From: Flavobacteriales bacterium
Lineage (GTDB): Bacteria; Bacteroidota; Bacteroidia; Flavobacteriales_F; PHOS-HE28
Length of the DNA: 64,000 bases
NCBI GenBank assembly: GCA_013360395.1
Contig: JABWBQ010000002.1
Coordinates: 16,703 to 80,702, forward strand
Reading direction: 5' to 3'
Below the pieces are notes generated by a model, which was not told where the DNA came from, made no database searches, and saw nothing but the letters and a program-made list of their open reading frames with translations. Numbering within the stretch: the first letter of the stretch is position 1; every line of letters begins with the position of its first letter. The translations under genes and the position numbers were made by a program. Shown piece after piece: positions 3,397 to 48,340 of the stretch.

Positions 3397-3999
3397 ATGA
3401 AAGCGCCGACCGATCTTCGCGCTGCCATGAGCAACAAGGCGGCCAAGAGCAAGGCGGTGGAACTGCTGGGCTTCGGCATACCCAAGCAGCAGGTGTTCGA
3501 CAACCTGCGGATGGAGTTCCCCGAGGTGAAGCCGGGGAAGCTGGCCGAATGGCTGCGTTACATGCCCACCTCGTATGCACGTGAGAAGTACCGCACCTTG
3601 CACCTCGCCCTGCTGGCGATCATCGTGCTCTCCGCCGTACTGCGTATCCTGCGGCAGGTCTTCAGCAGCGGGGTCCACCTGGATCAAGCGACGGCCTACC
3701 TGAGCCTGATCCCCATTGCCACATTGCTCATGGGGTGGAGCCTCTACCGCTGGCAGGGGCAGGTGTTCGAGTGGGTGGGCTGGGGCAACGTAGTGGGCGT
3801 GTTCGGGTTGATGCGCGATCTGAGCCTTTTCGTGAAGGATGGCGGCGATCCGTGGACCATATCCGGTAGGCTCTTGAGCATTTCCACTGGAGCGATCGCG
3901 CTGTACCTGGCGCACAAGGTCTTCGCCAAACCGAAAGTGGATAAGGACCCGATGACCGGGGAGAAGCGCTACGTGTTCCGGGATGAGGCGCTGGTCTAA
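3397..3999 (+). CDS. hypothetical membrane protein
   Basis: 200 aa with a positively charged N-terminus, then 3-4 hydrophobic helices. No recognisable motif. Confidence 0.4.
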   Translation: MKAPTDLRAAMSNKAAKSKAVELLGFGIPKQQVFDNLRMEFPEVKPGKLAEWLRYMPTSYAREKYRTLHLALLAIIVLSAVLRILRQVFSSGVHLDQATAYLSLIPIATLLMGWSLYRWQGQVFEWVGWGNVVGVFGLMRDLSLFVKDGGDPWTISGRLLSISTGAIALYLAHKVFAKPKVDKDPMTGEKRYVFRDEALV

Positions 4000-4120
4000 C
4001 GGGAACTTGGAACCAAGGGAAGGACATGGCTTCGAGGCCACGGCAGCCCCCGACAGAGCAGTCAGCATGACAGAAAACGCCGTAGTGCGGCGATTAAACC
4101 CGATACGGAAGTCCCACCGC

Positions 4121-5365
4121 TCAATGCGGTAGAAAGAAGCCCCAGTATGCGCACCCGGCCAGTGCGGGAAGCAAGAGGGCCAGCGCCGGCAGTAGCGGCC
4201 AGCGCTTGCTCCGATACCGATGCGCTCGAAGGATCAGTACCACCGCCACCACGAGCAGGAAATACGGCAGCGAGGCCAGCGCGGGATGCACATCGCCCAG
4301 GCCGAAGTAGAAGACCTTTTCCAGCGTGAGTAGCACGGCCACCAGCCCCACCAAGGTCACCAGCCCGAGACCGGCCACCACCAACGGCCAACTCGTACGC
4401 ACCGGCAGCCTACGGATCCGACGCAGCCCGTTCATGAGCACCCACACGCCGAGGATGAGGCCCCACAGCACAGCCGCCACGCCACAGGCCATCAACCCTT
4501 GGAACAGCCAGCGTTGGTGGAAGGGCGTGCGGTACGCCTGCAGCGCTTGGTAGGCCTTGTTCGGGGGGAAGAGTGCAGGCAGGTCCAGCGTGTGCGCGCC
4601 CTTTCGCAGCTCCGCGTGCAGATCGAAGGTGATCCGGTGTTCGTAGTCGTGATAGAAAGCCAGGTGCACGAGGCCGCTGTCAGGTTCGAAGAGCGTGCTG
4701 AAGAAGGTGCCGTTCCCCAGGAACTTCCGGCAGGACTTCATGCCTTCCAACACGGACCACGCGCCGTCCACCGTAGGCGCAACACCCGCCTCGAGGAGCG
4801 TACGACCTTGTTGCAGGCGCGGAATGGGAATGGCGTCCATGTCCGTATCGCGTGCCAGCCGCCAGTTGCCCACCGCGAAGTACGGCTCGTCGCCCAGCAG
4901 GATGGTGTCGTTCTGCACCACCGCGTAACGGCCCTGCGCATCTGCCAGGAAGATCATGCTCTGATGCAGGAGGATCCGGTCATGTTTCCGCAGGAAGGCC
5001 ACCGCTTCCGGAACGTCGTGGCACTGCTCCAGCATGCGGTTGGTCAGCGCATTGAACTCAAGCGGCGGCTTGCCCGGCGAAGGCGCTACGTCCATCGGCT
5101 GGACCGTGAGCCCGTCGAACACGAGTCCGACCTCGTTCATGCCCAGTTGGTCCGTCCAGGGCAGGTATGGATGCCCCCGCCAACTGCTGAAGTACACTGC
5201 GCCGAGCCGGCCAGCCTCGCCGGGCACGAAGCGCACGCGGCCTTCCACACACCACGAGTCCTCGTTGTTGCCCACGAAGGTCCGCCCCCCATTGTGGAGG
5301 ATGAAGGCGGTGCAGGCCGGGGCCCACAACGGAAGCAGCATGGCGAGGAAGGCGAACAGGCGCAT
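4121..5365 (-). CDS. choloylglycine hydrolase / linear amide C-N hydrolase family (Ntn hydrolase) with a C-terminal polytopic membrane extension
   Basis: Signal peptide MRLFAFLAMLLPLWAPA followed by CTAFILHNGGRTFVGNNED (N-terminal Cys nucleophile plus Thr, typical of the bile salt hydrolase/penicillin V acylase family). The last ~130 aa form several hydrophobic helices. The start is set at the internal Met (ORF track starts at 5413). Confidence 0.55.
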   Translation of the reverse strand: MRLFAFLAMLLPLWAPACTAFILHNGGRTFVGNNEDSWCVEGRVRFVPGEAGRLGAVYFSSWRGHPYLPWTDQLGMNEVGLVFDGLTVQPMDVAPSPGKPPLEFNALTNRMLEQCHDVPEAVAFLRKHDRILLHQSMIFLADAQGRYAVVQNDTILLGDEPYFAVGNWRLARDTDMDAIPIPRLQQGRTLLEAGVAPTVDGAWSVLEGMKSCRKFLGNGTFFSTLFEPDSGLVHLAFYHDYEHRITFDLHAELRKGAHTLDLPALFPPNKAYQALQAYRTPFHQRWLFQGLMACGVAAVLWGLILGVWVLMNGLRRIRRLPVRTSWPLVVAGLGLVTLVGLVAVLLTLEKVFYFGLGDVHPALASLPYFLLVVAVVLILRAHRYRSKRWPLLPALALLLPALAGCAYWGFFLPH

Positions 5366-6655: not shown

Positions 6656-7483
6656 ATGGCGCGATCGCTGCGCTTGCGGATGTTCGCTGGGCCGAACGGG
6701 TCCGGAAAGACGACCATCATCAATGCGGTACGCAAGGCCCGGGTGAACGGCCGTCCCGTGGATCTGGGTGCGTACATCAACGCGGATGACATTGCGAAGG
6801 CCCTCGGCAAGGGCTACGACCTTGCGCCCTTCGAGCTTGAACTTGATGCCGAACGCTTCCTGGCCTTTGCGGCCGCTTCCGGTCTGTTGGACAAGGAGTT
6901 CATGCTGAAGGACCTGGAGCATGGCGTGGTCTGGACCAGCGATCGCGTACGTTCCAAACCTTCACTGCCAAAGGACCGTGTGGCCCAGCTGATCGCGCAG
7001 TTCCTGTACGATGAGCTGCTCACTGCGAAGCGCAAGTTCTCGCTCGAGACGGTGTTCAGTCACCCGAACAAGTTGGAACTGATGAAGCGGGCCAAAGCAA
7101 TGGGCTACAAGGTGTACCTCTACTTCATTTCCACGGAAGATCCTGCGATCAACGTCCAACGGGTGAAGGATATCCGCGTGAAACAGGGTGGCCATGATGT
7201 GCCGAAGGACAAGATCATCAGCCGCTACCATCGGACCATGGCGAATCTGCCGGAAGCGCTATCGATCGCCTACCATGCCTACCTATGGGACAACTCGAAG
7301 CACGGTTCTGCCCAGTTGTTCTGCGAGATGAAGCGGACGGATGACGGTACGCTCTGGGACATCGATCCCACGTTGGTGCCGATCTGGTTCCTGCCCTACT
7401 TGTTGGAGCTCCCGGAGGCGGGAGATCTTTCTCATGTGTATTGGAAGGCGATGGAGCGATTCAGGGATCCTTCAGGGGAGTGA
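6656..7483 (+). CDS. zeta-toxin-like P-loop kinase / AAA family ATPase
   Basis: N-terminal Walker A FAGPNGSGKTTI, size ~275 aa, with acidic residues placed as in zeta/PezT-type UNAG kinases. GC is lower than the flanks. Confidence 0.5.
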   Translation: MARSLRLRMFAGPNGSGKTTIINAVRKARVNGRPVDLGAYINADDIAKALGKGYDLAPFELELDAERFLAFAAASGLLDKEFMLKDLEHGVVWTSDRVRSKPSLPKDRVAQLIAQFLYDELLTAKRKFSLETVFSHPNKLELMKRAKAMGYKVYLYFISTEDPAINVQRVKDIRVKQGGHDVPKDKIISRYHRTMANLPEALSIAYHAYLWDNSKHGSAQLFCEMKRTDDGTLWDIDPTLVPIWFLPYLLELPEAGDLSHVYWKAMERFRDPSGE

Positions 7484-7881: not shown

Positions 7882-9405
7882 ATGAACAACTCGGATGGAA
7901 TGAGAATGCTCTTGGTGTTCATGACCGCTTCAGCGCTGGTGGTCCAGGCCCAACCCGAACTGCCGTTGCTTTGGGAGCACCGCTTCCCCGAGCCTACATT
8001 CATGACCGGCTACGGTGACGTGGCCGTGGGCATGGCGGTGCGGAATGACAGTTTGCTGGTGGGCCACAGCTGGGAGAACATTTCCCAGAGCAGCCTGATC
8101 CACGCCGCAACAGGCGATCCGGTCTGGTCCCTATCGTCGGGCGATACCGTGTACCACCAGGGCGGGCGGAGTTTTTTCGGGAATGCGATGATCGGTGCCG
8201 AGCGTGTGGCATCCGGCGCTGGGATCGGTGTCCGCACGCGGTTGTACGACCTGGATGGCACGGTGCCTTGGACCGTGGATGCCGGGCTGCAGAACGTGGC
8301 ACGGATGTGCGGTCCGCTGGTCAATGGCGCGGGCGACTCCGCCTTCGTGCTGGCCTACCAGAATGGAACACTGCACGGCTTCCGCTACGATCACGCGGGT
8401 GGCACGGGGAGCTGGCAGCTCCCCACCGGCCATCCTTGGCGCGAATTCTCCGCCAACTTCAACGCAGCGGGCCATCTGTTGGTCACGGCCATGGTGGACC
8501 ATCCCGGAGCGTTCACGGACGTGCCTCGGCTTGTCGTTCTCAACAGCGTGGATGGCAGCGTGGAATGGTCTGCCTACCTGGAGGATACCACCGGCTTCGT
8601 GGTCAATTCGCCCGCCATGACCGTACCATGGGCCGGCGATACCATGCTCACGGTGCATACCACTTATGCGGGCAAGGTGCTGATGCGGATGACCGAGGCC
8701 ACCACCGGGCAGAGCGTGTGGTCCTTCGAGGACAGCCTGAGCCTTTCGCCATACCTGGCCTCCGTGGCCGTGGTACCGTCCCAGGGCAGCATTTTGGTGG
8801 CGTTGGACCGCGGTTCCGTGATCGCCTACTCCAGGAGCAACGGGCGCGTTTGGATGGACACGCTGAACCTGACGTCCGCGTACCCGAACACGCGGATCCT
8901 GGCGAATGAGGACCATGTGGTGCTGGTATCGCCAGCAGACCGCCACCTCGACCAAGGCCAGGATGTGATGATCCGTGCGCTGGACCCGACCACCGGCACA
9001 GTGCTCGGGGAGGCTTGGGTGAACGACATCGCGGATACGCACGATATGCCGGAGGATGCGCTGCTGAACGGAAGCATGCTCCACCTGATCTCGGCGGCCA
9101 CACACGACACGTTGAACATCCTCTTCGAGAGCACCACCCTCCTGGTCTCCACCTTCGATCTCTCCGTTACGACGGGTGTTCACGGGCATGCGGAAGTGCC
9201 GGCACTCGTGCAAGGGATCATCTCGGCCGGCAGCATCCAGGATCGACTGGGTACGCACGTGAAGCACTGGAAGGCCTTCGACAGGCACGGGCGGCTGTTG
9301 GCCACGGGCGATGGCGGGCGGATGGATGCCTGGTACACCACGGCTGCTTCGGGCATGTATACGTTGGTGGCGGGAAAGGAACGGTTGGTCTTCCTGAAAC
9401 CCTGA
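7882..9405 (+). CDS. secreted hypothetical protein (probable beta-propeller); paralog of 48403-49938
   Basis: Signal peptide MRMLLVFMTASALVVQAQ. Shares motifs with the second copy: LQWQHRF / GHSWEN / GGRSFFGN / LLDPATG / WVND..THD / C-terminal ..DAWY.....Y.L.AG...L.F..P. Confidence 0.6.
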   Translation: MNNSDGMRMLLVFMTASALVVQAQPELPLLWEHRFPEPTFMTGYGDVAVGMAVRNDSLLVGHSWENISQSSLIHAATGDPVWSLSSGDTVYHQGGRSFFGNAMIGAERVASGAGIGVRTRLYDLDGTVPWTVDAGLQNVARMCGPLVNGAGDSAFVLAYQNGTLHGFRYDHAGGTGSWQLPTGHPWREFSANFNAAGHLLVTAMVDHPGAFTDVPRLVVLNSVDGSVEWSAYLEDTTGFVVNSPAMTVPWAGDTMLTVHTTYAGKVLMRMTEATTGQSVWSFEDSLSLSPYLASVAVVPSQGSILVALDRGSVIAYSRSNGRVWMDTLNLTSAYPNTRILANEDHVVLVSPADRHLDQGQDVMIRALDPTTGTVLGEAWVNDIADTHDMPEDALLNGSMLHLISAATHDTLNILFESTTLLVSTFDLSVTTGVHGHAEVPALVQGIISAGSIQDRLGTHVKHWKAFDRHGRLLATGDGGRMDAWYTTAASGMYTLVAGKERLVFLKP

Positions 9406-9882
9406 TCCCAATTCGCACTAAGACGTAGGCCGAACTACTCGGTCTCTTTCCGCATGACTTCTCCGTCGTGATCGTTCCGCAGCCCATGCTATGCAACGCC
9501 CCCGCCGTATCGTCCTGTGTAGTGATCCCTTCGTATCTCTAGCCTACGCCTTCGTGCGAAATGGGATAAGCGGATACGGGTTGAACGGGACGGCCGCGTT
9601 CAGGGCGGCAGCCATGTTCCGCGCCGGGTGTGGTGTGGTTGGTGCACCGAAGTGTAAGGGTGGAGCACTGAACCCGCGTGACGGATCGCAGCGGCACCCC
9701 GCACCCCGAGGGCCCAGAGCGTAGCGCAGCGGAGTCGAAGGGTGCGAGGGGGAGGAGTACAGCGAAGAGCCGGACCCCGAGAACCCTGAGCGGAGGCTCT
9801 GCGAAGTCGAAGGGTGCGAGGGGGCACGCCCAAACCCACCTTCCATTTCACGCTTTCGACCGCGCACCGGTATTTTCGCGGC

Positions 9883-12800
9883 ATGTCAACAGCCGTAGCC
9901 CCTCCATACGTCCCCAAGCACAAGATCCGCGTGGTCACCGCCGCCTCGTTGTTCGATGGTCACGATGCCGCCATCAACATCATGCGGCGGATCATCCAGA
10001 GCACCGGCGCCGAGGTGATCCACCTGGGGCACGACCGCAGCGTGGAGGATGTGGTGAACACCGCGATCCAGGAGGATGCCCACGCCATTGCCATGACCAG
10101 CTACCAGGGCGGGCACGTGGAGTACTTCAAGTACATGCACGACCTGCTGAAGGAGAAGGGCGCGGGGCACATCAAGATCTTCGGCGGCGGCGGGGGTACC
10201 ATCCTGCCCAGCGAGATCGAGGAGTTGCACGCCTACGGCATCACGCGGCTGTACCACCCGGACGATGGCCGCGCCATGGGCCTGCAGGGCATGATCAACG
10301 ACATGCTGGAGCAGGCCGACTACGACCTGAGCGACCAGGTGAACGGTGAGGCGAAGAAGCTGACCCCGCAGAACTGGACGGCCATCGCCAAGCTGATCAG
10401 CACGGCGGAGAACCACCCGCAGGTGTTCGAGAAGATCGCCGACGAGGTCCACAAGAAGGCCGCGGCCAGCAAGGCGCCGGTGCTGGGCATCACGGGCACG
10501 GGCGGTGCGGGCAAGAGCAGCATGGTGGATGAGCTGATCCGTCGTTTCGTGCTGGACCAGCCCGGCAAGACCATCGGCGTGATCAGCGTGGACCCCAGCA
10601 AGCGCAAGACCGGCGGCGCGTTGCTGGGCGACCGCATCCGCATGAACAGCATCCGCGGCGAGCGGGTGTACATGCGCAGTCTCGCTACGCGGCAGAGCAA
10701 CCTCGCGCTCAGCAAGCACGTGAAGGAAGCCGTGGCCATCCTGAAGGCAGCGGGCTTCGACCTGGTGGTGCTGGAGACCAGCGGCATCGGCCAGAGCGAC
10801 ACCGAGATCCTGGATCACAGTGATGTTTCGCTCTACATCATGACGCCCGAGTTCGGTGCGGCCACGCAGCTGGAGAAGATCGACATGCTCGACTTCGCCG
10901 ACGTGGTGGCCATCAACAAGTTCGACAAGCGCGGCGCCCTCGATGCCCTGCGCGACGTGAAGAAGCAGTACAAGCGCAACCACCAACTGTGGGACGCCAA
11001 GGACGAGGACCTGCCCGTGGTGGGCACCATCGCCAGCCAGTTCAACGACCCCGGCACCAACGCCCTCTACGCGCGGCTGATGCGCAAGATCAAGGAGAAG
11101 ACCGGCATCGAGCTCGATAGCAGCTTCCACGCGCACGACGAGATGAGCGAGAAGGTGTGGATCATCCCGCCCGCCAAGAGCCGCTATCTGAGCGAGATCA
11201 GCGAGAGCAATCGGAGGTATGATGGCAAGGTGCGCAAGCAGGCGGAGATCGCGGACAAGCTGTACGGGTTGTATTCGGCTGTACTCACCTTCGGTGGCAC
11301 TGACCTTTTGGAGTCGGAAGTCCCGAGGCCCCTGAGTCACGAGTCGGGCGCGAAAGCGACTCACGACTCACGACTTACGGACTCAGTCGACTTCCTCATT
11401 CAAAGGTTCGAAGAACTGAAGAAAGACCTGGATCCCCACCTCTGGTCCATGCTCCAGAACTGGAAGGCCGAGGAGGAACGCTACTCCGGCGAGTTCTACA
11501 CCTACACCGTGCGAGGCAAGGAGATCAAGGTGCCGAACCACAGCGAGAGCCTCAGTCACCTGAAGATCCCGAAAGTCGCGCTGCCGAAGTTCCGCAGCTG
11601 GGGCGACAAGGTGCGTTGGGCCATGCAGGAGAACACGCCCGGCTTCTTCCCCTACACCGCGGGCATCTACCCGTTCAAGCGCACCGGCGAGGACCCCGCG
11701 CGGATGTTCGCCGGCGAGGGCGGCCCCGAGCGCACCAACAAGCGCTTCCACTACGTGAGCCAGGGCATGCCCGCCAAGCGCCTCAGCACCGCCTTCGACA
11801 GCGTGACGCTCTATGGCAACGACCCCGGCCGTCGTCCCGACATCTACGGCAAGGTGGGCAACAGCGGCGTGAGCATCTGCTGCCTCGACGATGCCAAGAA
11901 GCTCTACAGCGGCTTTGACCTCAGCGACCCGAAGACCTCGGTGTCCATGACCATCAACGGTCCCGCGCCCATGCTGCTCGGCTTCTTCATGAACGCGGCG
12001 ATCGACCAGAACTGTGAGAAGTACATACGGGAGCACGGGTTGGAGAAGGAGGTGGAGAAGAAGATCAAGGAGCGCTGGGAGAAGTTGGAGAAGGCGAATG
12101 GCGAATGGTCAATGGCGAATGGAGGGCGCGGCTTTTCCCATTCACCAACTCCCATTCACCATTCACCTCGACCTCGCTACCACGGAGACATACCTGCGGG
12201 GAACGATGGTCTGGGCTTGCTCCTCCTCGGCATCACCGGCGACCAGGTCCTCCCGAAAGACGTCTACGAGAAGATCAAGGCCGAAACGCTGCAACAGGTC
12301 CGCGGCACCGTGCAGGCCGACATCCTGAAGGAAGACCAGGCGCAGAACACCTGCATCTTCAGCACCGAGTTCGCGCTGCGGCTCATGGGCGACGTGCAGC
12401 AGTACTTCATCGACAAGAAAGTCCGCAACTTTTACAGCGTCAGCATCAGCGGCTACCACATCGCGGAGGCCGGCGCCAACCCCATCAGCCAGCTCGCCTT
12501 CACGCTGGCCAACGGCTTCACCTACGTGGAGTACTACCTGAGCCGCGGCATGGACATCAACGCTTTCGCGCCGAACCTCAGCTTCTTCTTCAGCAACGGC
12601 ATGGACCCCGAGTACGCCGTGATGGGCCGCGTGGCGCGCCGCCTCTGGGCCAAGGCGCTCAAGCACCGCTACGGCGCCGACGAGCGCAGCCAGATGCTGA
12701 AGTACCACATCCAGACCAGCGGCCGCAGCCTCCACGCGCAGGAGATCGACTTCAACGACATCCGCACCACGCTCCAGGCGCTGTACGCCATCTACGACAA

Positions 12801-13401
12801 CTGCAATTCGCTCCACACCAACGCCTACGACGAGGCCATCACCACGCCCACCGAGGAAAGCGTGCGCCGCGCCATGGCCATCCAGCTCATCATCAACAAG
12901 GAGCTCGGCTTGGCCAAGAACGAGAACCCGCTGCAGGGGTCATTCATCATTGAAGAGTTGACAGACCTCGTTGAGGAAGCGGTCTTGACGGAGTTCGACC
13001 GCATCACCGAGCGTGGCGGCGTGCTGGGCGCCATGGAGACCATGTACCAGCGCGGCAAGATCCAGGAGGAAAGTCTCTACTACGAAACGCTGAAGCACAC
13101 CGGCGAATACCCGATCATCGGGGTGAACACCTTCCTCAGCAGTAAAGGATCACCGACGATCCTGCCGAAGGAAGTGATCCGTGCCACGGAAGAGGAGAAG
13201 GAGGCGCAGATCGCAACGGTGGAGAACCTCAAGGCCGCCTACGCCCCCGAAGCCGCCAAGGCCCTGAAGGACCTGCAACAAGCGGCGGTCCACAACGAGA
13301 ATATGTTCGAGGTGCTGATGGAGGCGTGTAAGTATTGCTCGCTGGGGCAGCTGACTGCGGCGATGTTTGAGGTGGGGGGGCAGTACAGGAGGAATATGTA
13401 G
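9883..13401 (+). CDS. icmF: fused isobutyryl-CoA mutase (B12-binding domain + MeaB-like G-protein chaperone + mutase catalytic domain)
   Basis: N-terminal [12 protein letters not shown] (DxHxxG B12-binding motif). Central [13 protein letters not shown]-loop, [21 protein letters not shown] and the NKFD motif of MeaB/ArgK GTPases. C-terminal [20 protein letters not shown]... and [10 protein letters not shown]... of methylmalonyl-CoA-mutase-type TIM barrels. Start taken at ATG 9883 (ORF track begins at GTG 9814). Confidence 0.85.
11321..11395 (+). repeat. in-frame nested palindromic insertion inside icmF (codes [28 protein letters not shown])
   Basis: Outer arms cggaagtc/gacttcc. Inner arms gagtcacgagtcg / cgactcacgactc around gggcgcgaaagc. 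It lies in the linker after the GTPase domain and is absent from the expected mutase consensus. Confidence 0.5.
12093..12168 (+). repeat. in-frame hairpin insertion with tandem 9-mers inside icmF (codes ...[25 protein letters not shown]...)
   Basis: Left arm ggcgaatggcgaatggtcaatggcgaatggag. Right arm ctcccattcaccaactcccattcaccattcacc is its imperfect reverse complement, with loop ggcgcggcttttc. Confidence 0.55.
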
Positions 13402-13430: not shown

Positions 13431-13736
13431 ATGCCCAAGCTGTACGAGTACTTCGGTCTCATCTTTCTGTTCTACAGCGACGATCATGACCCCATGCATC
13501 TTCATGTGCGGCATGGCGACCGCGAGGGTATCGTCATGCTCATCATCGTGGAGGGCAATCTGGTTGAACTGCGTTGGCGGGCTAAACGCGGGGCGGCCAT
13601 GCTGAATGAAAAGGAACAGCGCGAGGCCGAGGCGTTCGTACGGGCCATGAAGAGCGACATCGTCGCCAAGTGGACCGCCTTCTACGTCGAACACAAGCGC
13701 ATCAAGCCTGAGCGCATAACCCGCCGGATCAAATGA
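13431..13736 (+). CDS. DUF4160 domain protein
   Basis: MPKLYEYFGLIFLFYSDDHDPMHLHVRHGD... matches the DUF4160 N-terminal signature (MP..F.G..I.FY.DH.PPH H). Begins 30 bp after the icmF stop. Confidence 0.75.
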   Translation: MPKLYEYFGLIFLFYSDDHDPMHLHVRHGDREGIVMLIIVEGNLVELRWRAKRGAAMLNEKEQREAEAFVRAMKSDIVAKWTAFYVEHKRIKPERITRRIK

Positions 13737-14050
13737 AGATCGCTGAGGACGTCCGTATCAAGAAGGCCACCTATATGGGTGACTACATCATTCGATTCGC
13801 CTTCACCGATGGCCATGTGAGCGAGATAGACTTCCATCCCTTCCTCAGCGCGGCCGGGCAAAATCCCATGAACAGCCAGTATTTGGATGTCCTGCGCTTC
13901 CGGGAGTTCAAGCTGCACCGCAATGTGGATGTGTACTGGGATGATTGGGAGATGTGCTTCCGGTTCGAGACGCTCTACGCGGGGAAGCTGCCGAAGATGC
14001 CAGCACCGCAACGGCGATCGGTTCGACGAAAGGTGACGGCCAACGCGTGA
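13733..14050 (+). CDS. DUF2442 domain protein
   Basis: ATGA overlap with DUF4160. ...YIIRFAFTDGHVSEIDFHPFL... is typical of DUF2442, the usual partner of DUF4160. Confidence 0.7.
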   Translation: MKIAEDVRIKKATYMGDYIIRFAFTDGHVSEIDFHPFLSAAGQNPMNSQYLDVLRFREFKLHRNVDVYWDDWEMCFRFETLYAGKLPKMPAPQRRSVRRKVTANA

Positions 14051-14058
14051 AGAACGCC

Positions 14059-14355
14059 ATGGTCATCGGCGTGAACACCTTCCTCCGCAGCAAAGGCTCA
14101 CCGACGATCCTGTCCGCCGTACGGCGGATGATCCGTGCCACGGAAGAAGAGAAAGAAGCGCAGATCGCGACGGTGGAGAACCTGAAAGCCGCCTACGCCC
14201 CCGAAGCCGCCAAAGCCCTGAAAGACCTGCAACAGGCGGCGGTGCGGAACGAGAATATGTCCGCGGTGCTGATGGAGGCGTGCAAGTACTGCTCGCTGGG
14301 TCAGCTTACGGCGGCGATGTTCGAAGTGGGGGGGCAGTATAGGAGGAACATGTGA
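14059..14355 (+). pseudogene. duplicated, ~10% diverged 3' fragment of icmF (last ~98 codons incl. stop; first reiteration)
   Basis: ...[17 protein letters not shown]...[73 protein letters not shown] against icmF residues ...[17 protein letters not shown]...[10 protein letters not shown]. Confidence 0.75.
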
Positions 14356-14374
14356 TGATGAGGATGCTGAGCGG

Positions 14375-14412
14375 GATTTGAGGTGGGGGGCAGTACAGAA
14401 GGAATATGTGAC
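14375..14412 (+). repeat. short reiteration of the icmF 3' terminus (gatttgaggtggggggcagtacagaaggaatatgtga)
   Basis: Matches icmF 13365-13401 (gtttgaggtgggggggcagtacaggaggaatatgtag). Third copy of the terminus. Confidence 0.7.
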
Positions 14413-14443
14413 TGGGTACCCGGCTCTGTCTTAACTTCGTGTC

Positions 14444-14659
14444 ATGGCCTCGGCGCACAACTACATCCAACTGTCGTCCCTTCCGGAGGATGTTCGCCAG
14501 CAGGTGCTCGACTTCATCGAGTTCCTGATGCGGCGCCGTCAGGGCAACGAGCCGAAGGAGAAGCGCAAGACACCGGTGCCCGGCCTGGCCAAAGGCATGG
14601 TCACCGTGCCAGCAGACTTCGATGCACCCTTGGATGACTTCAAGGAGTACATGGAATGA
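14444..14659 (+). CDS. DUF2281-like antitoxin (VapB-type partner of the PIN toxin)
   Basis: 71 aa. ...LPEDVRQQVLDFIEFLMRR... and the C-terminal DFDAPLDDFKEYME are characteristic of DUF2281 antitoxins. ATGA overlap with the PIN gene. Confidence 0.6.
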   Translation: MASAHNYIQLSSLPEDVRQQVLDFIEFLMRRRQGNEPKEKRKTPVPGLAKGMVTVPADFDAPLDDFKEYME

Positions 14660-15042
14660 AGCTGTTGCTTGACACGCACGTCCTGCTTTGGTTCCAGGCG
14701 GGCGACCAAGCATTGCCGAAAGCGGCCGAGCAGGCCATCCGATCCGAGGCCAATGAAGCGTTCGTCAGCATGGTCTCCTTCTGGGAGATCGGACTGAAGC
14801 ATAGCATTGGCAAGCTGCCCTTACGTAAGCCGCTGGATGTATTCCTCAGCACGATCACTGAGGCAGCATTCCAGATACTCCCGCTGGACATCCCACACAT
14901 TGTTGCTTCTTCGGCACTGCCGCTGCACCACCGAGACCCGTTCGACCGGATGCTGATCGGGCAGGCGAAGCATGAAGGCATGCACCTGATCACCGTGGAT
15001 GCGCAGTTCCGGGCATACGATGTGCCACTGATCGGTTTGTGA
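14656..15042 (+). CDS. vapC: PIN domain toxin (VapC family)
   Basis: 128 aa. N-terminal LLDTHVLLW and the conserved acidic residue positions of the PIN fold. Translationally coupled to the upstream small gene. Confidence 0.75.
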   Translation: MKLLLDTHVLLWFQAGDQALPKAAEQAIRSEANEAFVSMVSFWEIGLKHSIGKLPLRKPLDVFLSTITEAAFQILPLDIPHIVASSALPLHHRDPFDRMLIGQAKHEGMHLITVDAQFRAYDVPLIGL

Positions 15043-15118
15043 TGACCATCATGCTGAGCGAAGCGAAGTCCCGCCGTAGCGACCGTGGCCGAGGAACGAG
15101 GCGTACGGACGCTGGAGC

Positions 15119-15158
15119 GGGATTCGAGGTGGGGGGGCAGTACAGAAGGAACATGTAG
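15119..15158 (+). repeat. short reiteration of the icmF 3' terminus (gggattcgaggtgggggggcagtacagaaggaacatgtag)
   Basis: Fourth copy of the icmF terminus. Lies between the PIN gene and the Fic gene. Confidence 0.7.
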
Positions 15159-15186
15159 TGCTGTTCAGCATCACCAAGATGAACAC

Positions 15187-15969
15187 ATGCCTGTGGCCCT
15201 GCTAGTCAACACATACCTGCCAGCATATCGCGCACAGCTGAACCTGCCGCTCGCTGAGCTTATCGCCACGCTCGCCGAGGAGCGCAACGGTGGCGGCGCT
15301 GACCTGCTCAACCTGTATGAGAGCGCCGTGGCCAGCAGCCAGATCGAGGGCAGCAAGGTCACCCTCGACCTTTTCAAACGCACCATGGAGGCCGCTGGGA
15401 GCGGGCCCAGACCGCGCGATGTGCAGGAAGTGGCCGATCTGGTGAGCGCCTACCGCTTCGCTCAAGTGAACCCGCTCAACATCGCCAACCTGCTCGAAGC
15501 GCACCGCATCGCATCAGCATTGCTCGTCAACGCCAACGATCGTGGCGCCTGGCGCACAAAGGGCGTTAAGGTGGGCAATGCCATCACCACCGTGTACATG
15601 GCCCCGCATCAGAGCCTGGTGCCATCGCTCATGGACCAGCTGATGGAGGAGACCGGTACGCTCTTGGATCAGAAGCTCACAATCGAAGAGGCGTTCTATT
15701 TCGCCGCGCTCCTGCACCTCGTCTTCGTCAAGGTGCATCCTTTCATCGACGGCAATGGACGCACCGGCCGTCTATTGGAGAAGTGGTTCCTCGAGAGCCA
15801 CATCGGCCCGATCGCATGGAGCATCCGCAGCGAACGCTACCTGATCCGCAACCTCGACGATTACTACGATACACTTGCCGCTGTCGGACCGGATTGGGGT
15901 AGCTTGCAATGGGACCGCTGTCTGCCCTTCATGCTGCTGTTGCCGCAGGCGCTTACCATGAAACGATAG
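15187..15969 (+). CDS. Fic family protein (Fic/Doc AMPylase-type)
   Basis: Canonical Fic motif HPFIDGNGRTGR. Start taken at ATG 15187; the ORF-track extension to 15085 runs through the repeat copy. Confidence 0.8.
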   Translation: MPVALLVNTYLPAYRAQLNLPLAELIATLAEERNGGGADLLNLYESAVASSQIEGSKVTLDLFKRTMEAAGSGPRPRDVQEVADLVSAYRFAQVNPLNIANLLEAHRIASALLVNANDRGAWRTKGVKVGNAITTVYMAPHQSLVPSLMDQLMEETGTLLDQKLTIEEAFYFAALLHLVFVKVHPFIDGNGRTGRLLEKWFLESHIGPIAWSIRSERYLIRNLDDYYDTLAAVGPDWGSLQWDRCLPFMLLLPQALTMKR

Positions 15970-23081: not shown

Positions 23082-23184
23082 TCCGAGCAACGGGCCGTGG
23101 AGGGGATAGTGGACTTCGTGTGAAGGGTGTGCCGGGTGGTGTACTTTTATTGGTGAGCAGGGGGAGGGCGTGGGGGAGAATGTG

Positions 23185-23295
23185 CGTGTGGAGAGGGGGT
23201 GAGAAAGGTGAGGATGGAGAGGGAGTGGGAATGGTGAGAAAGTGAAAAGGAGAGAAGGGAGAGAAGGGAGAGAAAGGAGAGAAGAGGAAGGCGTG
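23185..23295 (+). repeat. polypurine (GA-rich) low-complexity tract
   Basis: gagagggggtgagaaaggtgaggatggagagggagtgggaatggtgagaaagtgaaaaggagagaagggagagaagggagagaaaggagagaagagg... Almost exclusively G/A on the plus strand. Intergenic. Confidence 0.6.
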
Positions 23296-23377
23296 ATCGG
23301 GTGAAGCGGGACGGGCGAATGGGTGCAGGTCCGGAGTTGATGGAGGATAGGGGTGGTTCACGACGAACAACGGGTGG

Positions 23378-48147: not shown

Positions 48148-48272
48148 GGGGAGGGCGCGAGGGTGGGGTCTCGAACGCATGAGGGTATCCGGGGGGGAAG
48201 GGTGGGATGCCGGCCACCGTGGAAAGTGCCTTACGGAGGCGGCAACAAAGAAGCGGTCTGTTCCGCTCGGTA

Positions 48273-48340
48273 GTGAGGAAGTGAAGAAGCGAGTAAGCCA
48301 CGACCATGCTCACTTCTTCACTTTTTCACTTTTTCACTAC
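48273..48340 (+). terminator. long imperfect hairpin followed by T-runs (possible intrinsic terminator downstream of the SRAP gene)
   Basis: gtgaggaagtgaagaagcgag...gctcacttcttcactttttcactttttcac. The arms are built from tandem gtgaa(g/a)aag units, then TTTTT. Confidence 0.4.

Follow-up and report, generated by a model that had tools for sequence, protein, structure and literature searches.

How an inverted repeat comes to lie, in frame, within the coding sequence of an enzyme is the question raised by icmF, the gene of the fused isobutyryl-CoA mutase, in a stretch of 64,000 nucleotides from a Flavobacteriales bacterium (assembly GCA_013360395.1, contig JABWBQ010000002.1, positions 16,703 to 80,702; this whole stretch is called the window below, and positions refer to it unless a locus is named). 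The repeat, hereafter cassette 1, is an imperfect palindrome with GAGTCNN units on its left, NNGACTC units on its right and a GCGAAAGC loop between them. We propose, at what we judge to be roughly even chances, that it is one allele of a hypervariable, in-frame heptanucleotide-repeat hairpin, i.e., of non-autonomous selfish or neutral DNA that is tolerated in a permissive linker of IcmF. The features on which the argument turns are the following.

9880..13401, + strand: icmF (fused isobutyryl-CoA mutase), host gene of cassettes 1 and 2 (Pfam domains, match to 4xc6)
11311..11395, + strand: cassette 1, in-frame inverted heptamer array of 28 codons (11311-11394) (repeats, lag-7 self-identity, folding)
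11311..11346, + strand: left arm of cassette 1, GAGTCGG AAGTCCC GAGGCCCCT GAGTCAC GAGTCG, made of GAGTCNN units (lag-7 0.53 over 11311-11347; direct and inverted repeats)
11347..11356, + strand: GC-rich loop of cassette 1, GGCGCGAAAG (folding)
11357..11395, + strand: right arm of cassette 1, CGACTCA CGACTCA CGACTTA CGGACTCA GTCGACTTCC, made of NNGACTC units (lag-7 0.59)
12093..12167, + strand: cassette 2, second in-frame inverted heptamer array, made of GCGAATG units and encoding a 25-residue stretch (lag-7 0.56, folding)

The sequence-only reading of this DNA had reported a nested inverted repeat inside the icmF coding region, and its arms could be located: the inner ones, GAGTCACGAGTCG (11334-11346) and CGACTCACGACTC (11357-11369), are 86% complementary over 14 nt, the outer ones are CGGAAGTC (11315-11322) and GACTTCC (11389-11395), and weaker pairing extends out to 11302-11409. 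The translation given there was correct, but the in-frame element starts at 11311 and not at 11321. The nested look of the palindrome is that of several 7-nt units pairing in register. Part of the loop and the bases next to it (11349-11358) fold into a small apical hairpin, GCG-AAAG-CGC, and similar centers are found in two related loci, L083 (GCGCGAATGC) and L084. Three linker cassettes have like loops, GCGCGAA[A/T]GC.

The folding that had been suggested as a check reached -36.6 kcal/mol for the sense RNA (z -2.1, to -2.3; 3 of 200 shuffled sequences were as good) and -42.8 kcal/mol for the antisense RNA (z -3.5; 1 of 200). As a generic hairpin, cassette 1 is better than chance and only moderately unusual, and it lies outside the top 20 of a sliding minimum-free-energy scan of the window, which is headed by cassette 2 and an intergenic hairpin. 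For cassette 1, the 7-nt periodicity is a stronger signal than the folding. With a lag-7 self-identity of 0.47, cassette 1 exceeds the background of the window (0.26 +/- 0.05), and none of 5000 shuffles came up to its value; cassettes 1 and 2 hold the top rank of the 64 kb for this periodicity.

The icmF reading frame is open from 9814 to 13401, with the ATG at 9880 as its likely start, and its product combines B12-binding (PF02310), MeaB (PF03308) and MM_CoA_mutase (PF01642) domains in one polypeptide according to Pfam. It matches Cupriavidus IcmF (4xc6) over its full length with 1392 bits, and it is 100% identical to NUQ13836.1, a protein of a Flavobacteriales metagenome-assembled genome. 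Cassette 1 lies between the GTPase and the barrel, where the alignment with 4xc6 breaks down, which bears out its earlier assignment to the linker between MeaB and the mutase barrel; in Cupriavidus, too, IcmF linkers are of varying length. The AlphaFold model of the 1173-residue protein is poor (mean pLDDT 63.6) and predicts both insert peptides as coil, with pLDDT below 50 for their central residues (480-496 and 743-762), which is weak evidence.

Cassette 2, which the sequence-only reading had missed, consists of a left arm (GGCGAAT)x4 at 12093-12122, a loop AGGGCGCGGCTTTT and a right arm of CATTCAC type at 12137-12167. It occupies a Bacteroidota-specific loop of the mutase barrel, a segment missing from 4xc6 and from orthologs that are 75-83% identical, and it is a stronger hairpin than cassette 1 (z -4.0 sense, -7.9 antisense). 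A search of Rfam gave no family match to the cassettes, cassette 2 yielding only sub-threshold, miRNA-like matches. A detector of inverted tandem-repeat hairpins pointed to three places in the 64 kb, compared with 0-1 in shuffled windows: cassette 1, 12096-12167, and a third hairpin outside icmF.

48272..48340, no strand assigned: third hairpin, intergenic, of 8-nt units (GTGAAGAA-type) ... (CACTTTTT)n (lag-8 0.66, folding)

This third hairpin is flanked by a SRAP gene and a PQQ_2-repeat gene, has z values of about -5 on both strands, and begins with GTAG and ends with CTAC, like the tag of a repetitive extragenic palindromic (REP) element. It is the only one that a gapless hairpin scan of the window recovered, the icmF cassettes being missed because their arms carry bulges.

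Whether this kind of DNA belongs to the enzyme or has been added to it can be judged from its orthologs. At the protein level, 120 IcmF orthologs were aligned, site 1 being the linker and site 2 the barrel loop. In those that are 75-83% identical, site 2 is empty (..WEDRG-LERPKY..) and the site-1 linkers are short and non-repetitive; the alignment, which had also been proposed beforehand as a check, establishes an insertion relative to these proteins. Inside a clade of 84-97% identity (outside both sites), in contrast, almost every lineage has a differing low-complexity insert at each site, and dozens of unrelated cassettes occupy exactly these two positions. The expectation that orthologs would lack the stretch holds for the distant Flavobacteriales; in the close relatives the place is taken by segments of similar length, which are unrelated cassettes and not a conserved segment, and neither of the outcomes named beforehand as refuting the idea of an insertion was obtained. 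Insert themes recur across the clade at either site, alleles sharing a theme are set apart by entire blocks of 7 residues (21 nt), and in a few members of the clade site 2 is empty or site 1 is short.

Among the matches listed in a search of genome contigs with IcmF, almost all orthologs were 70-75% identical, and L001 was the only close one. The "empty" site 2 of this 88% identical ortholog (L001 12197-12220) holds a perfect palindrome with a 9-bp stem, GGGCGTGAAATTTCACGCCC, which could be a cassette seed or a remnant.

At the DNA level, both sites were compared in 12 loci of the clade (the window, L001, L081-L084, L205 and L208-L212), ten of which supplied the 18 cassettes that were folded. 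All 18 fold as hairpins, most of them visibly built of inverted 7-nt arrays, from units that include GAGTCAC, GAGCCAC, CAGCCAC, CGGCCAC, AAGCCAC, AATCAGC, GCGAATG and CGGGTTG, several of which are one base apart. Similarity between cassettes is all or none: L081 and L082 share cassette 1 at 96-98% identity and L083 shares cassette 2 at 95%, whereas all other pairs are unalignable. Cassettes at the two sites are paralogous within L210, L084, L208 and L209 (z 6-14; four of the eight genomes compared), but those of the window are not paralogous to each other (z 2.2). The exception to the hairpin rule, which is not among the 18, is the short linker of L211. At about 3925-3975 of that locus (site 1), the allele GSDDQMIRGSENGNAPEV consists of four directly repeated 8-nt units (GATCAGAN) and then of GAATGG units; judged from its protein sequence, it looks ancestral.

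How such alleles replace one another can be seen by comparing L211 with L212: apart from a tract of roughly 260 nt around site 1 and one of some 60 nt at site 2, their identity is 99-100%. The cassette sequence has been replaced wholesale between genes that are 98.7% identical, and at least in this swap about 260 nt of coding flank went along, so that homologous recombination is indicated and not precise insertion. No target-site duplications were seen at the icmF sites. The window gene itself is a recombination mosaic relative to L084, as the two are 98% identical over the first 1.4 kb and 86-92% beyond, the drop occurring upstream of cassette 1.

Antisense folding is better for all 18 icmF cassettes, with a mean gain of 6.4 kcal/mol, mismatches that are C.A in the sense strand being G.U in the antisense strand, and 17 of 24 metagenomic hairpins putatively located in open reading frames (ORFs) show the same direction. 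The sense strand is A+C-rich in 17 of the 18 cassettes and has about twice the open frames of the G+T-rich antisense strand, which is rich in stop codons. The simplest cause of the asymmetry is an orientation filter by stop-codon avoidance: the antisense strand folds better because only the A+C-rich, stop-free orientation can serve as the sense strand. A role for antisense RNA was considered as well and is unnecessary, given the composition of the two strands.

The cassettes of icmF belong to a much wider class. Metagenomes were searched with the pattern GAGTCNNGAGTC..GACTCNNGACTC, the resulting sample being thereby selected for GAGTC, and at least 120 GAGTCNN hairpin loci were found on contigs of 37-74% G+C. 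In 73 of the 120 listed matches the arrays extend beyond the search pattern, and the contigs of these matches contain 223 inverted tandem-repeat hairpins, 193 of them with a period of 7. Single contigs carry several different unit sequences, and the architecture is also common in intergenic DNA. In-frame hairpins were confirmed in EPSP synthase (aroA), RpoB, a LeuA/CimA-like protein, an AccD-AccA fusion, ThiC and DnaG, the insert being placed at a domain boundary, close to one, or so as to separate two stretches of a single domain; these six hosts were checked by Pfam, and other ORF calls in high-GC contigs are heuristic. Among 116 elements of the GAGTC class, no excess of flanking direct repeats over shuffled pairs, no flank motif and no conserved termini were found. 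A search of viral contigs gave 12 matches only, so nothing points to phages as a vehicle.

On the contig L128, from a soil metagenome, heptamer hairpins of two unit families (8160-8753) bracket two tRNA-like sequences identified by eye, a placement that suggests a role or preference at sites of RNA processing or termination.

From this body of data we infer slippage, template switching and neutrality as the processes that would underlie the hypervariable hairpin. Arrays would arise and change in length by replication slippage in 7-nt units, and inside a gene only frame-keeping changes would survive, hence steps of 21 nt (three units). Intrastrand or inter-hairpin template switching might create and renew the complementarity of the arms, and might also copy a cassette from one hairpin site to another, as from the linker to the barrel loop. 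Whole alleles with their flanks would move between strains by homologous recombination. The product would be tolerated as a disordered, low-complexity peptide in a permissive linker or loop, and only the A+C-rich, stop-free orientation would be usable as the sense strand.

Several observations weigh against this proposal. The shared cassettes, at 95-98%, are more conserved than the flanking third codon positions, which are 63-88% identical (binomial p 1e-4 to 1e-5), a pattern not expected of a neutral, fast-slipping repeat unless it has spread recently or corrects itself. The all-or-none similarity argues against purely gradual drift in situ. The 5-nt core of the units varies less within arrays than the 2-nt spacer does, which simple slippage does not predict. 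Lastly, one family, (GAGTCxx)n-GGGGAGGGGG-(GACTCCA)n, is near-identical in four unrelated contexts, namely accD-accA, a cimA-like gene, rpoB and a fourth that was not identified, so copying in trans does happen, and dispersal of this family needs a genuine copy-and-paste step in trans.

A bolder version, which we put forward tentatively and consider rather doubtful, is that inverted heptamer arrays form a distinct and widespread class of self-propagating hairpins that spread without a conventional transposase or target-site duplications, and that would settle by preference in the interdomain linkers of core genes such as icmF, rpoB, aroA, dnaG, thiC and accD and go on overwriting them. Spread might then occur by hairpin-to-hairpin template switching, in many bacterial phyla, and the proteins concerned would gain rapidly changing disordered inserts.

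The conservation of shared cassettes, the all-or-none similarity and the dispersed GGGGAGGGGG family together keep a MITE-like, enzyme-driven mechanism as the main rival, MITE standing for miniature inverted-repeat transposable element. By this account, which we regard as unlikely, the cassettes would be classical miniature transposable elements (MITE-, RPE- or REP/RAYT-like), the arms being recognized, and copies inserted, by an enzyme encoded elsewhere. It would explain the four near-identical copies just mentioned, the five copies of one unit family on the single contig L128, the finding that cassettes are either highly conserved or absent, as expected of young insertions, and the filling of both icmF sites by one family in several genomes. 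There is also a precedent for in-frame palindromic elements in the Rickettsia palindromic elements (RPEs) (PMC10969869). However, the class has neither target-site duplications nor a flank motif, no termini are common to its families and the arms differ in every one of them, and the swap between near-identical genes takes about 260 nt of flank. Cassette 1, which is intragenic and 84 nt long, has neither a GTAG nor a CGTC tag at its ends, and none of the 10 genes beside the elements that were searched against Pfam (of about 50 ORFs of the window) is a transposase. The search for further copies, another of the checks proposed earlier, covered the 64-kb window and about 88 kb of related loci, and neither cassette 1 nor cassette 2 recurred there. 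The unit families of the relatives' cassettes likewise have no further copy in the flanks of five relatives (up to 10 kb per side) or elsewhere in the window.

A functional hairpin would be a structure in the mRNA, or in an antisense RNA, by which translation or co-translational folding is tuned at a domain boundary, or else the linker peptide itself would be adaptive. In its favor, shared cassettes are more conserved than synonymous sites, the potential to form a hairpin is kept in 18 of 18 alleles despite complete turnover of sequence, the verified inserts are placed in frame at domain boundaries, close to them, or between two stretches of a single domain, and antisense folding is very good, with z down to -7.9. 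We nevertheless hold a function to be quite improbable: all distant orthologs and some members of the clade do without cassettes, replacement was wholesale between genes 98.7% identical, Rfam gave no family match, and the same architecture is common in intergenic DNA. Moreover, of the two strands it is the sense one that forms the weaker hairpin, and avoidance of stop codons accounts for the strand bias.

Three IcmF orthologs hold a complete, in-frame ORF of a DUF559 (PF04480) endonuclease, two of them at site 1 and one in the loop of site 2.

L206 4998-5696, in frame: DUF559 ORF in icmF, bracketed by perfect 37-bp inverted repeats
L207 1487-2119, in frame: DUF559 ORF in icmF
L205 about 3700-4200, in frame: DUF559 ORF in icmF

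These ORFs look like homing-type selfish elements that are translated as part of the enzyme, and their occurrence at both sites means that both loops tolerate large in-frame selfish inserts. Cassettes could accordingly be imagined as scars or immunity alleles at two icmF targets of a homing endonuclease, with breaks repaired by junk or by co-conversion from other alleles. The three ORFs, the inverted repeats of L206, a replacement tract that includes flanks and so resembles co-conversion, and some short alleles (..TPNPSPKERG..) that resemble the flanks of DUF559 would all fit. This origin is very improbable in our view, since DUF559 is absent from the window and from every other hairpin-bearing locus searched, the DUF559 ORF at site 2 is four codons off the position of the cassette, heptamer hairpins occur in many genes and spacers without DUF559 in the DNA examined, and the 7-nt units are left unexplained.

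A chance palindrome within ordinary linker variability, which the modest sense fold (z -2.1 to -2.3) and the variable linker lengths even of Cupriavidus might suggest, is excluded by a 7-nt periodicity found in 0 of 5000 shuffles that places the cassette at the top of the window ranking, by the second cassette in the same gene, by the same architecture in every clade allele read, and by a detector that gives 0-1 matches in shuffled windows.

As for the surroundings of the gene, icmF sits in a variable island of toxin-antitoxin or defense-like genes (window 6656-7483 and 13431-15969: Zeta toxin, DUF4160, PIN, Fic), and the same place in relatives has HicA, HepT and restriction-modification genes. 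Short ORFs that match MM_CoA_mutase are found a few kb downstream of icmF in three relatives (L083 5413-5760, L084 17918-19407, L208 18806-20008) and may be gene fragments or a split second mutase. Farther away, between a DUF2249/ScdA_N/hemerythrin gene and the next ORF, some 120 nt (window 23181-23300) are purine-rich (G/A) and contain GGAGAGAAG-like repeats, although the genome has 65% G+C. The GC skew of the window (+0.03) is too weak to tell in which direction replication runs.

No long simple repeats are commoner in bacteria than heptanucleotide repeats, whose origin and role still await an explanation. A natural series for asking how such hairpins originate, are copied and come to be tolerated within proteins is provided by icmF, which has two fixed sites and dozens of alleles, and whose sites may be empty or filled in genes that are 98-99% identical. 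If they do spread without a transposase, this would add a mechanism of mobile DNA and a general source of disordered linker insertions in essential proteins. Assembly errors and mis-called genes also concentrate at the cassettes, as do spurious low-complexity "domains" of metagenomic proteins.

In eukaryotes, the long inverted arms of Foldback transposable elements are arrays of short tandem subrepeats; these elements are of kilobase scale, sometimes come with a transposase and are not read in frame, so that their likeness to the cassettes is one of architecture only. No equivalent description for Bacteroidota, and none of heptamer hairpins that are read in frame at fixed hot spots of conserved genes, was found in the literature searched, the coverage of which was incomplete. 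The nearest parallel in its effect on proteins is that of the RPEs, to which the sequence-only reading had drawn attention. They are palindromic repeats in frame in metabolic genes, translated and apparently compatible with the fold and function of the protein (PMC10969869), and to this extent the comparison stands. In contrast to cassette 1, which has 84 bp, 7-nt units, a Flavobacteriales host and no consensus across alleles, RPEs are of about 150 bp and form ten sequence-defined families, restricted to Rickettsia and each with a conserved peptide (PMC10969869); the size, host and unit structure of the cassette argue against its membership. The comparison does not extend to a defined transposable family: the DNA examined contains no second copy, neither target-site duplications nor conserved termini were found for the class, and the architecture is that of a heptamer microsatellite folded back on itself.

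REP elements and their REPIN forms, which are mobilized by RAYT transposases, and MITEs are likewise short, non-coding, hairpin-forming and non-autonomous, and some families of heptamer hairpins are multi-copy per contig. REPs, however, are 20-40 nt long and extragenic, with a GTAG or CGTC tag and a linked RAYT gene, and MITEs have terminal inverted repeats and target-site duplications, features that were not found for the cassettes in the DNA and genes searched (PMC2817692; PMC3116915; PMC3733652; PMC10969869). By the features tested, the cassette is not a member of the RPEs, REPs or MITEs.

The heptanucleotide simple sequence repeats (SSRs) come closest of the objects described. They are reported as the commonest class of long SSRs in bacteria, with polymerase slippage proposed as their cause (PMC4679880, citing Mrazek 2007). 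In Xanthomonas, convergent arrays of the heptamer GGGAATC are able to form stem-loops, with 70-75 inverted pairs per genome (PMC4692102), and related arrays are the GGGGA(C/T)T repeats of Nostoc and the STRR repeats of Calothrix (PMC4692102; PMC4679880, citing Mrazek 2007). Like the icmF cassettes, such SSRs are short tandem 7-nt arrays of about 2-6 copies whose length and sequence vary between close relatives. They are described as one G-rich unit per genome, mostly intergenic and under-represented in coding sequence, and are discussed as G-quadruplexes. The units GAGTCNN and GCGAATG have no G-tracts and are thus no G-quadruplex-type units like those of Xanthomonas or Nostoc, and icmF-type units in general differ from the known heptamers in being locus-specific and free of G-tracts, in lying in frame at fixed hot spots of conserved genes, and in their wholesale turnover.

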